Shown here: positions 8,829 to 16,644 of the stretch, piece by piece
Layout: every line of letters begins with the position of its first letter
Position numbering within the stretch: the first letter of the stretch is position 1
From: an uncultured Candidatus Saccharibacteria bacterium
Lineage (GTDB): Bacteria > Patescibacteriota > Minisyncoccia > Sungbacterales > JACQCQ01
NCBI GenBank assembly: GCA_964579195.1
Contig: CAZOFN010000001.1
Location: 1 to 26,281, forward strand
Length of the DNA stretch: 26,281 nt
Reading direction: 5' to 3'
Made by a program: the position numbers and the translations under genes
The notes under the pieces: generated by a model
Database searches by the model: none
Told to the model about the DNA's origin: nothing
The model's input: the letters and a program-made list of their open reading frames with translations, nothing else

Positions 8829-10546
8829 ACGATGTTTTCTTCTTTAAATTTTTTGACGCAGTCGTCGATAGCAACACTGCCTTGGTCACCGTCGCCGCGT
8901 TTTCGCAAAGCTACCGTGCCCGCTTCGGCTTCTTTATTACCAATCACGAGAAGGTAGGGGATTTTTTGCATCTCTGCCTCACGAATCTTTTTTCCGATGG
9001 ATTCATTGCGTTCATCAATATCCAAACGGATTCCCTCCGTCTTCAATTTTGCTGCCACTGAGCTTACATATCCTTTGTTTTTGTCATTGATGGGAAGAAG
9101 CGTCGCCTGCACGGGAGCGAGCCAGAAGGGAAAGGCTCCCGCGTAATGTTCAATTAAAATGCCAATAAAGCGCTCCAGTGATCCGTAAATGACGCGGTGA
9201 ATAGCAACAGGCGTTTTCTCTTTTCCATCTTCATCAATATAGCCGAGTTTAAACCGGCGGGGCTGCTGAAAATCGAGCTGGATCGTACCCATTTGCCACT
9301 CGCGGCCAAGTGTATCCTTCATAATAATATCAATTTTGGGTCCGTAGAACGCACCATCACCCTCTTCAACTAAATACTGCTTTCCACTTTCTTCGAGTAA
9401 AGTCTTCAGTGTCGCTTCCGCAGTATCCCATGTTTCGATGTCTCCCAGGAAGCTTTCGGGCCTGGTGCCGAGTCGAAAGAAATAAGGAAGATTGAAAATC
9501 GAATAAAACCGCTCAACAATTTCAAAGATATTCTGATACTCTTCTCCAATTTGGTCTTCAGTGACAAAGCAGTGCGCGTCATCTTGGCGAAACTCGCGGA
9601 CGCGGAAAAGACCGTTGAGAGTTCCTGAAAGTTCATAACGATGAAGAGGATCGGTGTCAGAAAAGCGAAGTGGTAAATCACGATAGCTTCGGAGTTTCGA
9701 CCCGAACACAATCATAGCGTTAGGGCAATTCATGGCTTTCAGGCCGTACTCTTCTTCATCCGGAGTTTTTGAAACGAACATATTCTCCCAGTAGTGTTCG
9801 TAATGACCGGAAATTTCATAAAGCCTTCGTTTGTTTACCAGTGGTGAGACGATTTCATGGTAGTTTCGTTTTTGGTGCTCCTTGCGCCAAAACTCAATCA
9901 GCGTGTTGTAGAGAAGAACCCCTTTGGGTAACCAATACGGCATACCGGGCGCCGTCTCGTGGAACATGAAGAGATCAAGTTGGGGTCCAAGTTTTTTGTG
10001 ATCGCGTTTCTCTGCCTCTTCGAGCATTGCAAGATACTCATCCAGTTTTTGTTTAGTATCGAAAGCCACACCATAGATTCGTGTAAGTTGAGGGTTTTTC
10101 TCGCTGCCGCGCCAGTAGGCGCCCGCAAGGCGCGTGAGTTTGAAGGCGTCTGGGTCAATATCGCTGGCGTTCCCGACGTGCCCGCCGCGGCAGAGATCCA
10201 CATAATTTCCCGATTGGTAGAGTGTCAGCGTCTCTCCATTTTTTGAGAACTCGTCAATGAGTTCGAGCTTGTAAAGATTGTCGCTGAATTCCACTCGCGC
10301 TTCGTCGGCCGATATCTCAGTCCGGCGGAACTCCTTCCAGGTGAGAAGGATTTCCCCCATCTTCTTCTCGATTTTAGGAAGATCGCTCTCAGAGATTGGT
10401 TCGGCGAATTCGAAGTCATAATAAAACCCGTTCTCAATAACGGGGCCAATGGCGCGTTTGGTATTTGGCCAAAGCTCCATCACGGCCGCCGCGAGGAGAT
10501 GAGCGAGCGAGTGCCGCAAGTTTTCTAAAGGGTGTACTTTGTCCAT
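8825..10546 (-). CDS. thrS: Threonine--tRNA ligase (begins at the editing domain, no TGS domain)
   Basis: RHSLAHLLAAAV, DLCRGGH, RDHKKLG, LKAMNCP, RVREFRQDDAH, FYGPKID, TIQLDF and IHRVIYGSLERF. Confidence 0.98.
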   Translation of the reverse strand: MDKVHPLENLRHSLAHLLAAAVMELWPNTKRAIGPVIENGFYYDFEFAEPISESDLPKIEKKMGEILLTWKEFRRTEISADEARVEFSDNLYKLELIDEFSKNGETLTLYQSGNYVDLCRGGHVGNASDIDPDAFKLTRLAGAYWRGSEKNPQLTRIYGVAFDTKQKLDEYLAMLEEAEKRDHKKLGPQLDLFMFHETAPGMPYWLPKGVLLYNTLIEFWRKEHQKRNYHEIVSPLVNKRRLYEISGHYEHYWENMFVSKTPDEEEYGLKAMNCPNAMIVFGSKLRSYRDLPLRFSDTDPLHRYELSGTLNGLFRVREFRQDDAHCFVTEDQIGEEYQNIFEIVERFYSIFNLPYFFRLGTRPESFLGDIETWDTAEATLKTLLEESGKQYLVEEGDGAFYGPKIDIIMKDTLGREWQMGTIQLDFQQPRRFKLGYIDEDGKEKTPVAIHRVIYGSLERFIGILIEHYAGAFPFWLAPVQATLLPINDKNKGYVSSVAAKLKTEGIRLDIDERNESIGKKIREAEMQKIPYLLVIGNKEAEAGTVALRKRGDGDQGSVAIDDCVKKFKEENIV

Positions 10547-10638
10547 CTTTGTTACCTTACTAAGGATTTAGCTGGTAATGGAGGGGAATGAGCGGGTGAA
10601 GTCGAGCGTCTAGCCAGGCTATATCTAATAGTCCTTCT

Positions 10639-10669
10639 AAAAAACGAAGACCTCTTCTGGGGAAGAGGC
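10639..10669 (-). terminator. Attenuator terminator in the thrS leader
   Basis: Minus strand GCCTCTTC-CCCA-GAAGAGGT followed by CTTCGTTTTTT, between the leader ORF and thrS. Confidence 0.75.
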
Positions 10670-10698
10670 GGTTTCTTGTTCTCGGCTCATTCGCAAAA

Positions 10699-10758
10699 CT
10701 ACCCTTTCCTCAAAGAAAATCCCTTGGCGGTCGTGGTAGTTGTCGCGGCCATGATCAT
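10699..10758 (-). CDS. Thr-rich leader peptide of thrS (MIMAATTTTTAKGFSLRKG)
   Basis: Five consecutive Thr codons (ACA ACT ACC ACG ACC, 10743-10729), downstream of a promoter and upstream of a terminator and thrS. Confidence 0.82.
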   Translation of the reverse strand: MIMAATTTTTAKGFSLRKG

Positions 10759-10770
10759 GAGTATAGAGCC

Positions 10771-10799
10771 TTTATACTTCTCTTCGAATTCTTTGTCAA
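10771..10799 (-). promoter_or_regulatory. sigma70-type promoter of the thrS leader
   Basis: TTGACA (10799-10794), 17 nt, TATAAA (10776-10771). Confidence 0.8.
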
Positions 10800-10878
10800 T
10801 TCACAGTCGCATGAAAGTTAATGTGGGAATAATATTAGAGTATTAGGGAGAGAAGCTCTCTCAAGGAAGGAGCCAGCC

Positions 10879-11109
10879 GTGCGTATCCGAACCAAAGATA
10901 TGCGTGAGTTTTTTCGAGGACTCAGGCACGCGTTTGCGCACGAGCCGCTGCAGACGACGGGCCACACACTTCTCTTCGCTGGACTCGTTACGGGAGTGGG
11001 TATTCTGTGGATCGGCTGGCGCGCATGCCAGGTGTTGAAGCAGAGACCCGCTAAAAAAGCCGAGGCGCGCTCGGTTCAGGAAGTTCCTGCTGGCGATGAG
11101 CTGCGGTGA
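10879..11109 (+). CDS. Small hypothetical membrane protein
   Basis: One hydrophobic segment (LLFAGLVTGVGILWIGW). Fills the gap between the thrS promoter and the dnaE 3' end and is followed by a strong hairpin. Confidence 0.5.
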   Translation: MRIRTKDMREFFRGLRHAFAHEPLQTTGHTLLFAGLVTGVGILWIGWRACQVLKQRPAKKAEARSVQEVPAGDELR

Positions 11110-11145: not shown

Positions 11146-14100
11146 TTATATGAGTTCACTCACTTGGTCGCAGAGAATCTTCGGTTCTCCATCTTTTTCT
11201 GAGACTTTTCCGTGCACGAGGAGCAGCTTCTCCGGTTGCCAAATGGCAGGATTTTTAGCGAGCATTGAAGGAAAGACTAATACTTCAGTTTTAGCGGTCG
11301 TATCTTCAAATGTAACAAAAAGCATGGATTCGCCGCTTTTTGTCAAAATTTTCTTGATTTCTGAAACGACGCCGCCGATGGAGACCATCTGACCGCGCAC
11401 GGATTCTGCGCCAAGTCCCCGGATGGGTCTAGCGGACATGTTTTTCAAAACTGGAGTCAGTTCAGCCAGTGGATGTTCGGTAACATAGAGGCCGAGAAGC
11501 TCCTTTTCCCAAGCGAGACGTTGCTTTTTTGATGCCGCCTCGGCTTTTTGCAGAGGAAGTGAGGGGGTTGCGAGATTTGGCTGCGAGTCAAAGAGGCCGC
11601 CCTGGCTTGAGCTTGCCCTTCGTTCGCGCTCCCTGGCGTAATTTAAGAGGAGCTCCATGTTTACAAGAACCTGGTTTCGTTCGCCAATGCTGTCGAGTGC
11701 CCCGCATTTTGCATGTGACTCGAGTGATTTCCGATTAAGGTCCTTAACGGGCAGACGTTCAATAAAGTCGGCGAGAGATAGAAATTTTCCCTCAGATTTT
11801 CGCGCGGCAATGACGGACTCCACGATATTGGAGCCGACGTTCTTGATTGCCGAAAGCCCGAACCTGATTTTGGCATTTTTCTCATCAATATCGGCAACGG
11901 TAAAAGTCTCAAAACTTTCGTTGATGTCGGGTGCAAGCACTTCAATGCCCATTGACTTGGCTTCATTAATGAGAAAGGCGACGCGCTCTATTTCAAACCC
12001 CTCTGCGGTCATTAAGGCTGCCATGTACTCAGGTGCAAAGTGCGCCTTTAGATAACCCGTCTGATAGGCTACTAGTGCATAGCATGCGGCGTGTGCCCGG
12101 TTAAACCCGTACCGGGCAAAGGCTGGGAAGAGTTCCCAGATGGTTTCCGCTGTCTTCTCATGAATCCCTTTTTTCTTCATGCCCTCGATTAACTTTTCAC
12201 GTTGCTCATTAAGGAGGGATTTAATCTTCTTCCCGATAGCTTTTCGCAACGTGTCGGCTTCGGGGAGGGTATAGCCGGCGAGGTCCCGCGCAATTTGCAT
12301 CATTTGCTCCTGATAGACACCAATGCCATAGGTTGGCCCTAAAATCGGCTCGAGTTTCGGGTGAAGATACTGTACAGGCTCTCGCTTGTGTTTTCGATTG
12401 ATGTAGGAGGGGATGTATTCCATCGGGCCAGGTCGGTAAAGGGCCACCATCGCAATCAGGTCCTCAAGTTCTGTAGGTCGAAGTTCCTTCAAGTAACGTT
12501 TCATGCCGTCCGACTCAAATTGGAAGACGCCAGTGGTTCGCGCTTCCTGGAACAGCTTGTAGGTTGGCTTGTCATCGAGTGGCAGCGCATCAATATCCAT
12601 TTCAATACCGCGGAGCTTTTTTACGAGATTCACGGTCCGCTCAATAATCGAGAGGTTACGAAGGCCGAGGAAGTCCATCTTGAGAAGACCAAGTGCCTCG
12701 ACCCCTTTCATATCGTACTGAGTCACGAGAACTTGTGAGTCTTCCTCGCCAGCTCGAGTGGCATATTGCAGCGGGACAAAATTCTCGAGCGCTTCAGGAC
12801 CGATTACGACACCAGATGCATGTATTGAGGCATGCCTCGCCACGCCCTCCAATTTCCGCGCCGAATCAATCAGCCGCTTTGCCTCAGGGTTTGTTTCGTA
12901 AAGGTCACGGAGTTCAAAGACATTTTTGAGGCACTCGTCAAGCCACCCCTCCTTCATGCCCTGCGTGGGGTTGAAGGGAATCAGCTTTGCCACCTGGTCG
13001 CAGAAAGCGTATGCCATGCCGAGAGCCCGACCGGTGTCGCGGATGGCGGCCCTGGCGGCCATCGTTCCGAACGTGATGATTTGTGCTACGTGGTCGTCTC
13101 CATATTTTTTCTTCACGTACTCAATGACCTCATCGCGACTGGTATCGGCAAAGTCGAGGTCCATATCAGGCATCGAGATACGCTCCGGATTCAAGAACCG
13201 CCCACACAGTAGATTGTATTTCAAGGGGTCCAGGTTCGTAATATTTAAAAGATACGAGATGAGCGAGCCGGCGGCAGAACCTCTGCCTGGTCCGACAACA
13301 ATTCCGCTGTCTTTTGCCCAATTCACGAAGTCCTGTACAACGAGAAAGTATGAAATGAAGCCGGTTGTTTTAATAATTTCGAACTCGTAGTGGTACCGCT
13401 CACGGAGCGCCGTGATGAATGGGTCTTTGCTCATCCGCAATGTCCTTTCGTCAATACCGTAGCGCCGCTTAATTCCCCCAAGGCAACATTTCGCAAAGTA
13501 TTGTTCCTGTGTGTAACCGGCTGGCGTCAAAAACGGGGGAATCTTGTTCTTTCCTAGTTCGATCTCGACATTCGTCATGTCCGCAATGAGCGATGAATTC
13601 TCTATCGCCTCGGGAGTTGCGGGAAAGAGGGCCGCCATTTCTTCGGCGCTCCGAAGAGAGAAGTTATCTTGCCGCATGGTCAGACGGTTTTCATCTTCAA
13701 ACCGCGCGCCAGTCTGGACTGAGACGAGAATATCCTGCGCCTCCGCATCGTCAGCGCGACAGTAGTGAATGTCGTTGGTTGCCACGACCGGGGCTCCGGT
13801 TTTTTGTGAGAGTTCAATCAGTGCTTCGTTGACACCAACTTGCTCTGGAATATTGGGGTGTGCTCCGAGCTCCAGGAAAAAGTTCTCCTTTCCCAAAATT
13901 TCCTGGTATTCGTGAATGAGCGACTCTGCTTTTTCTCGCTGGTTTGTCATGATAGCGCGGGGAATCTCGCCGGTGAGGCAGCCGGAAAGTGCAATGAGAC
14001 CCTTCGCATATCGCGAAAGAATTTCACGATCCACGCGGGGCTTGTAATAAAAACCTTTGAGATGCGCTTCGGTAACGAGCTGAACAAGGTTTTGATATCC

Positions 14101-16392: not shown

Positions 16393-16400
16393 CGCACTAC

Positions 16401-16429
16401 TTGACAGACAATATAATACGTGCTAGGGT
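16401..16429 (+). promoter_or_regulatory. Possible sigma70 promoter of unit 2
   Basis: TTGACA, 17 nt, TAGGGT with an extended -10 TG. Confidence 0.5.
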
Positions 16430-16435
16430 GTTTTT

Positions 16436-16602
16436 GCTGATAGCAGAAGCTCGGCTTCTGCCAGCACCCACCCCAGGGCACTATGTGCCCCATGCGTGAC
16501 GTACCGTATTCCTAAGGGGCCTATGGCTCCGCCTCATCCTTTCGGGGAATTGAGAATGGATACGGCCACGGACATCACGTGTGAGGTGGGCTTTTTCTTT
16601 TT
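16436..16602 (+). ncRNA. Unassigned ~165-nt structured RNA
   Basis: Stems 16443-16450/16454-16461, 16467-16472/16585-16590, 16476-16481/16485-16490, 16492-16502/16572-16582, 16504-16511/16558-16565 and 16516-16521/16525-16530, plus TCCT-TTCG-GGGA. Ends in CTTTTTCTTTTT; no credible plus-strand ORF. Confidence 0.55.
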
Positions 16603-16644
16603 CTCTAAAAAGACTTGGTAATTCTTTTTTAGTATATCTATAAG

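Follow-up and report, generated by a model that had tools for sequence, protein, structure and literature searches.

A putative threonine-sensing transcription attenuator upstream of thrS in a Patescibacteria genome, with a patchily distributed set of related leaders

The leader of the threonine--tRNA ligase gene (thrS) encoded in the analysed stretch of 26,281 nt (hereafter, the window) is most probably a classical threonine-sensing, ribosome-mediated transcription attenuator, which would tie expression of the synthetase to the supply of charged tRNA-Thr. The basis for this reading is provided by the anatomy of the sequence, its non-random occurrence, the existence of relatives with runs of Thr codons and pairings that covary among them; ribosome stalling and the response to threonine are what we infer. 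The comparative evidence, namely the Thr runs, the covariation and the match of each leader to its own terminator arm, supports the original prediction, which had interpreted the thrS leader as a Thr attenuator.

The order of elements proposed in that prediction for the minus strand, with a promoter followed by an ORF of 19 amino acids containing five Thr codons, a hairpin with a U tract, and thrS, is present in full (Table 1). The codons of the leader ORF are ATG ATC ATG GCC GCG ACA ACT ACC ACG ACC GCC AAG GGA TTT TCT TTG AGG AAA GGG TAG, and no Shine-Dalgarno sequence was found ahead of its ATG. The five Thr codons use ACA, ACU, ACC and ACG and are therefore read by all three tRNA-Thr isoacceptors (UGU, GGU and CGU) that aragorn found in the genome. 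The leader stop codon and the hairpin are separated by 29 nt. The terminator stem is GC-rich and comprises 8 bp, with its core located 5 nt from the U tract; in the full-length fold, GAA/UUC adds 3 bp to the stem, leaving one base between the stem and the U tract. A promoter scan found no consensus promoter in the 92-nt stretch between the terminator and thrS. It should be noted that the consensus scan omitted the TTGACA-17-TATAAA site of the leader because it demands T at the last position of the -10 box, which in the window ends in A. The gene located immediately 3' of thrS, with overlapping stop and start codons, encodes a protein combining domains that make an odd mixture for an ultrasmall bacterium (Table 1).

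Table 1. Coordinates of the features described in the text. Positions without a locus prefix refer to the window; empty cells indicate that no value applies.
Feature	Position	Strand	Remarks
-35 box TTGACA	10799-10794	-	Sequence reading
-10 box TATAAA	10776-10771	-	17 nt past the -35 box, 12 nt ahead of the first ATG
Alternative -10 box TATACT	10765-10760	-	7 nt 5' of the second ATG (10752)
Leader ORF, 19 codons and stop	10758-10699	-	ORF translation; encodes MIMAATTTTTAKGFSLRKG*
Five consecutive Thr codons, ACA ACT ACC ACG ACC	10743-10729	-	Putative sensing codons
Region 1 (GCGACAACUACC)	10735..10746	-	In folds without a ribosome, pairs with GGUAGUUUUGC just 3' of the stop codon
Region 2 (UUGAGGAAAGGGUAGUUUUGC)	10713-10693	-	Last four codons, stop codon and six bases; alternative partners are regions 1 and 3
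Region 3 (GAAACCGCCUCUUCCCCA)	10658..10675	-	Terminator 5' arm and loop; predicted antiterminator partner of region 2
Region 4 (GAAGAGGU)	10639..10657	-	Terminator 3' arm, then CUUCG and U6
Predicted terminator hairpin GCCTCTTC-CCCA-GAAGAGGT	10669-10650	-	Followed by CTTCG and T6 at 10644-10639
Untranslated stretch, 92 nt	10547..10638	-	From terminator to thrS start
thrS, threonine--tRNA ligase, 573 aa	10546-8825	-	Presumed regulated gene; TIGR00418, E = 7e-203, 675.6 bits against a cut-off of 383.65
Gene just 3' of thrS, 376 aa	7698-8828	-	DUF5667, Kazal-type inhibitor and C-terminal cupredoxin (amicyanin-like)
dnaE	14439-11146	-	Upstream of the leader
Terminator-like site of dnaE	11074-11060
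Divergent ORF, 76 aa	10879-11109	+	Strong Shine-Dalgarno; counterpart adjoins thrS in family members too
Candidate unclassified small RNA	16400-16612	+	TTGACA-17-TAGGGT promoter-like site, then a structured stretch of ~185 nt with T-rich tail
G029 leader peptide			MPIRNSTTTTATTTSP
G032 leader peptide			MRIYRGKITTPTTTTALKASGKFA
G053 leader peptide			MQIFGGRTTTPTTTTAQNASGRFA
G047 leader peptide			MQVFRSNIIQTTTTALTASGGFAS
G023 leader peptide			MQNFTGKTTATTTSL
G013 leader peptide			MLTRRHTTVTTTTTTRTISFGEVVVFA; at contig end
G028 leader peptide			MKISRSQTTTTTTDIRPSDSR; 1.3 kb ahead of thrS
G190 leader peptide and terminator			MVNSATTTTTTTSF; immediately 5' of thrS
G099 leader peptide and terminator	L171:1501-1632	+	MTNKQIFTTTTTTTTTTFSG, ten consecutive Thr; before an aspartokinase gene, N-terminus thrA-like
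G050 attenuator copy	L134:1501-1631	+	Clearly the same RNA; Thr codons shifted out of frame by a 1-nt deletion, giving MRIFMGKMRPRRL
G152 attenuator copy	L162:1501-1638	-	20-nt terminator hairpin same as that of the window; before thrS
Thr-rich ORF of metagenome contig Ga0155176_106	L108:2301-2475	+	GTG start, 19 aa, MESRNLILTTSTTTTPFKG
MT[E/Q/D] ORF	L017:993-1415	+	Two or more CxxC motifs
MT[E/Q/D] ORF	L119:407-757	-	Two or more CxxC motifs
MT[E/Q/D] ORF	L024:2785-2928	-	Two or more CxxC motifs
MT[E/Q/D] ORF	L134:1657-1854	+	Two or more CxxC motifs
MT[E/Q/D] ORF	L012:3311-3481	-
MT[E/Q/D] ORF	L117:1197-1418	+
MT[E/Q/D] ORF	L162:1404-1448	-

Predicted folds of the window reproduce, as snapshots, the three states of the classical attenuator model. 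When the ribosome is absent, the minimum-energy fold has region 1 paired with the segment just downstream of the stop codon and the terminator formed. Whichever of the five Thr codons occupies the ribosomal A site, and as long as the 3' arm has yet to be transcribed, UGAGGAAAGGGUAGUUUUGC pairs with region 3 at -13.2 kcal/mol, as compared with -10.6 kcal/mol for the terminator core. Finally, a ribosome that has reached the stop codon covers region 2, leaving the terminator as the only structure that can form. The pairing of UGAGGAAAGGG with CCUCUUCCCCA at 9 of 11 positions, described in the original prediction, is correct and extends further upon folding. Region 2 spans codons 16-20, including the stop codon, plus 6 nt, and starts 15 nt after the last Thr codon, a geometry that fits a device in which a ribosome at the stop codon would mask region 2 and one positioned on the Thr codons would leave it free. 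Taken individually, the core 9/11 duplex of the window, with two mismatches and an energy of -10.3 kcal/mol, is not more stable than those formed by shuffled purine-rich sequence (p = 0.39), and the antiterminator of the window is the weakest of the set, barely outperforming the region 2 sequences of other lineages on the same arm; for the 1:2 duplex of the window, the comparison with shuffles yielded p = 0.022. When applied to each instance in turn, such shuffling for the 2:3 and the 1:2 duplex gave mixed p values, because the region windows were crude, and was replaced by a permutation test across lineages (see below).

In the proposed mechanism, transcription would start at TTGACA-17-TATAAA and the 19-codon leader would be translated almost from the 5' end of the transcript. 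When Thr-tRNA-Thr is plentiful, the ribosome would reach the UAG codon and cover region 2, so that regions 3 and 4 would form the hairpin and the polymerase would stop at the U tract. When Thr-tRNA-Thr is scarce, the ribosome would stall on the five Thr codons, covering region 1 and freeing region 2, which would then pair with the 5' arm and loop of the terminator, and the polymerase would continue into thrS. If the leader is not translated, region 1 would pair with region 2 and the terminator would form.

We assessed how often comparable arrangements occur in the same genome (0.82 Mb, 51% G+C, 95% complete). Among the 6934 short ORFs (ATG-initiated, 8-40 aa, all six frames of the whole genome), a run of at least four Thr is found in a single one, the thrS leader ORF; runs of at least five identical residues are present in 14 of the 6934, mostly of S, R, P or L. 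A scan of all upstream regions of the genome for short ORFs combining an amino-acid run with a downstream terminator gave the thrS leader as the sole convincing candidate, and no leaders for other amino acids were found. It is very unlikely that chance alone would place a lone Thr run within the ~300-nt leader of thrS, in the right orientation and flanked by a promoter and a terminator. The leader is found without differences in contigs from four groundwater metagenome runs and is therefore not an assembly artefact; no variants were detected within the leader in the DNA runs, and among the RNA runs none was found to contain this DNA.

To survey relatives, a covariance model (R1) built from six instances was searched against 62 genomes of the order, and the matches were inspected one by one. 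R1 recovered nine of the 62 genomes, including that of the window (G000), spread over three families and eight genera; the relatives are the eight species representatives G029, G032, G053, G047, G023, G050, G013 and G028, with E values from 1e-30 to 7e-3. A looser model (R2) was applied to a class-level sample of 151 genomes, in which terminator-only matches dominated, and only those accompanied by an inspected Thr ORF were retained; this added three leaders, two located before thrS (G190 and G152) and one before an aspartokinase gene (G099). An in-frame Thr run is present in 10 of the 11 related leaders, the exception being G050. Apart from this exception, the leaders keep 5-10 Thr codons, and the peptides, of 14-26 aa, vary in sequence. 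The conservation of the Thr codons, while the rest of the peptide and its length vary, argues for a role in sensing rather than for a functional peptide. In the G152 leader, as assembled, the terminator is reached without a stop codon, and the position at which the stop would be expected is preceded by an A7 run; the disturbed frames of G050 and G152 may reflect either decay or assembly error. The ends of the G013 contigs carrying the leader and thrS do not overlap, so no link between the two is established in that genome. Separately, a metagenome contig (L108 in Table 1) carries a Thr-rich ORF located ~60-100 nt before a thrS with 54% identity. It is accompanied by a CCCCTTTTAAGGGG palindrome, with no clear terminator, and may represent a different kind of Thr leader.

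Judged by these matches, the related leaders constitute a real but patchy family. No such element is present in G001, the nearest relative (thrS 68% identical), where the spacer between dnaE and thrS is ~60 nt, or in G002, G003 and G004, in which the divergent small ORF and thrS are ~75 nt apart and a promoter directly precedes thrS. Thus, the Thr leader was found in none of the four family members, and the genus has no further species representative. Among the first 29 loci of the order, considered over at most 500 nt, the Thr leader was found only in G029, with G032 and G023 being added by a wider scan. In metagenome contigs, the best thrS identity to the window is 69%. R1 gave no match at any of the 80 metagenomic thrS loci. 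A pattern scan of genome contigs yielded mostly chance matches in GC-rich genomes and one Patescibacteria contig. This patchiness implies frequent loss, lateral spread or both. Accordingly, the search for conserved Thr runs and a covarying terminator and antiterminator, which the original prediction had put forward as a check, gave a positive result, yet a patchy one that does not extend to the closest relatives.

Several features are shared by the leaders that were recovered. A TTGACA-like -35 box (TTGACA, TTGACG or TTAACA) occupies the same relative place in G029, G032, G023, G047 and G053. The distance from the -10 box to the leader ATG is 6-10 nt in the relatives, and 6-12 nt over the six inspected promoter regions including that of the window; with the -10 box so near the ATG, the start site that we infer would probably make the leader ORF leaderless, or almost so. 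In an alignment of 11 instances fitted to the covariance model, the terminator helix has 94.7% of its cells paired, and five of its seven pairs show changes on both sides (CG to UA, UA to CG), counts that lean towards that model; when the partner columns are slid by 1-3, the pairing drops to ~50%. Compensatory changes in the terminator stem are also seen in an independent MAFFT alignment. The helix between regions 1 and 2 is likewise kept in relatives, with changes on both sides, and the block of Thr codons pairs with region 2 in ribosome-free folds. The segment following the Thr codons differs from lineage to lineage and in each complements its own terminator 5' arm and loop, as exemplified by the region 2 and arm pairs GGAAGAGACGAUU and AAUCGCCUCUUCC, CGUCUGGGA and UCCCAGACG, GGGGUUC and GAACCCC, and GGCUGAGGU and GACCUUAGCC. 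When region 2 sequences were permuted among lineages, each terminator type being represented once, the own-with-own 2:3 duplex energies gave a sum that ranked first among all 120 permutations; the same rank was obtained with each of three different choices of five lineage representatives. We consider this lineage-specific match between region 2 and the 5' arm of its own terminator to be evidence for the predicted antiterminator.

These comparisons bear on the possible alternatives. The Thr leader could sense threonine through ribosome stalling and have an output other than intrinsic termination, such as Rho-dependent polarity, altered mRNA stability, or occlusion of, or re-initiation at, a downstream ribosome-binding site. 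The weakness of the antiterminator in the window, the separation of the U tract from the core stem, and the second ORF with a strong Shine-Dalgarno sequence that closely follows the hairpin in most relatives would be compatible with such an output, as would the precedent of the S. lividans thrL-thrS leader, which lacks a clear terminator (PMC8079986). However, a GC-rich hairpin followed by a T-rich tract is present in every instance, its stem covaries, and in each lineage region 2 changes in step with the terminator arm, which is the design predicted by control through intrinsic termination; we thus regard a different output as unlikely. Autoregulation by ThrRS through a tRNA-Thr-like structure in the leader or in the 92-nt untranslated region, with the Thr ORF being incidental, appears highly improbable. 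Although E. coli ThrRS represses its own translation (cited in PMC2965389) and the 5' untranslated region of the window is more stably folded than shuffles (z = -2.84), no mimic of an anticodon arm was noticed, and the relatives retain the Thr codons and the capacity for alternative pairing rather than the untranslated region adjacent to thrS, which ranges from 92 nt to 1.3 kb and often contains another ORF. Finally, the ORF might have arisen by chance beside a standard terminator or insulator, or might encode a small Thr-rich peptide that functions independently. Either reading would be in line with the absence of the leader from the closest relatives and of a Shine-Dalgarno sequence from its ATG, but is very hard to reconcile with the siting in the thrS leader of the sole run of at least four Thr among the short ORFs of the genome, and with ten related leaders that have Thr runs in frame, the peptides of nine being otherwise unconserved. 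In addition, no same-strand upstream gene ends near the hairpin, since dnaE, which has a terminator-like site of its own, already ends at 11146.

Control of thrS by Thr-sensing attenuation would be in keeping with the physiology of the organism. Threonine synthase thrC (TIGR00260) and homoserine dehydrogenase (PF00742) were not found in the 95%-complete genome, whereas the same searches were positive in 14 of 14 control genomes; this fits the probable auxotrophy suggested by the original prediction. The organism, an apparent Thr auxotroph, probably imports threonine. Since it is apparently unable to make this amino acid, the device would match the level of the synthetase to imported threonine, as T-boxes do in Firmicutes. 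Other members of the class, such as G099, appear to make threonine and to control its synthesis as enterobacteria do.

The closest parallel to the window's leader in terms of logic is the E. coli pheM-pheST system, in which a leader peptide attenuator controls phenylalanyl-tRNA synthetase, such that low levels of charged tRNA lead to more synthetase. Both have a short ORF rich in cognate codons, and a terminator and antiterminator before a synthetase gene; the window's leader differs in the amino acid, in the phylum, in the lack of any sequence relation and in its ORF being seemingly leaderless or nearly so. The enterobacterial thrL controls biosynthesis genes and mixes Thr and Ile codons. The window's leader shares with thrL (Rfam Thr_leader, RF00506) sensing by a run of Thr codons and an architecture of 1:2 / 2:3 / 3:4 pairings, but precedes a synthetase gene rather than biosynthesis genes. 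The T-box, which controls thrS in Firmicutes, binds uncharged tRNA directly and needs no translation. The gene, the class of signal (charging of tRNA-Thr) and the output (terminator versus antiterminator) are the same in the T-box system, whereas the device proposed here would depend on translation of the leader. Searches of positions 10400-11000 against Rfam families, including RF00506 and the T-box family RF00230, gave no match, only noise, at E values up to 10.

Leader attenuators have also been described or predicted for synthetase genes in other bacteria. The pheST attenuator of gamma-proteobacteria is cited as a precedent in a study that predicted leader-peptide attenuators for Streptomyces trpS and leuS (PMC1262725), and RNA-seq-based re-annotation of S. 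lividans placed the leaders alaL, thrL, trpL2 and leuL2 before alaS, thrS, trpS and leuS, respectively (PMC8079986). The S. lividans thrL has two Thr codons, a leaderless start and no clear intrinsic terminator (PMC8079986). Like the Streptomyces leaders, the window's leader would be a synthetase-gene leader peptide outside Proteobacteria, and the leaderless start of S. lividans thrL corresponds to what we propose for the window; unlike thrL of S. lividans, to which it has no sequence relation, it has five consecutive Thr codons, a clear hairpin with a U tract, and comparative support. Because such attenuators are known or predicted for E. coli pheST, for Streptomyces trpS and leuS and, in a weak form, for S. 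lividans thrL-thrS, describing an attenuator on thrS as unusual, as the original prediction did, was an overstatement. In a limited literature search, we found no paper linking bacteria of the candidate phyla radiation (CPR) with leader peptides or attenuation.

Additional observations were made in the window and at the thrS loci of relatives. In most relatives, an ORF of 15-141 aa that starts with MT[E/Q/D] and has a strong Shine-Dalgarno sequence lies between the attenuator and thrS (Table 1); it is absent from the window. This ORF would be co-regulated with thrS. The CxxC motifs found in four of the loci are suggestive of a zinc ribbon, and the Cys-rich ORFs of relatives match no Pfam family. 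Furthermore, the ThrRS of G023, G014, G021, G026, G020 and G019 (L024, L026-L030) is a short form whose alignment to the window's enzyme begins only at about residue 175 of the latter; it lacks the N-terminal part, which in other ThrRS holds the editing domain. Elsewhere in the window, the structured stretch at 16400-16612 folds with z = -4.2 relative to shuffles and has no Rfam match even at E = 1, making it a candidate unclassified small RNA; an apparent FFFF-containing ORF at ~16590 was considered as an amino-acid leader and rejected, as it corresponds to a T-rich terminator tail.

Gene regulation in CPR bacteria is almost unknown, because these organisms are uncultured. It is conceivable, though we advance this tentatively, that the leaders described here represent a hitherto undescribed family of Thr-sensing attenuators, characterised by leader ORFs that are leaderless, which extends across a whole class of Patescibacteria and controls thrS (in one genome, Thr biosynthesis). 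In most members, the attenuator would also control the small CxxC protein, potentially a new factor associated with ThrRS or related to zinc. If true, such a class-wide family would provide the first comparative evidence that ultrasmall bacteria use coupled transcription-translation for amino-acid sensing. The mechanism itself is textbook knowledge and synthetase genes are known to be under such control; therefore, the advance would lie in distribution rather than in principle. The diverged instances provide ready material for covariation analysis, together with a model with which leaders of this kind can be annotated in CPR genomes. A clear leader-peptide attenuator would show that sensing by coupled transcription-translation operates in CPR bacteria, and that an apparent Thr auxotroph tunes its synthetase to the pool of charged tRNA without a T-box or a protein regulator.
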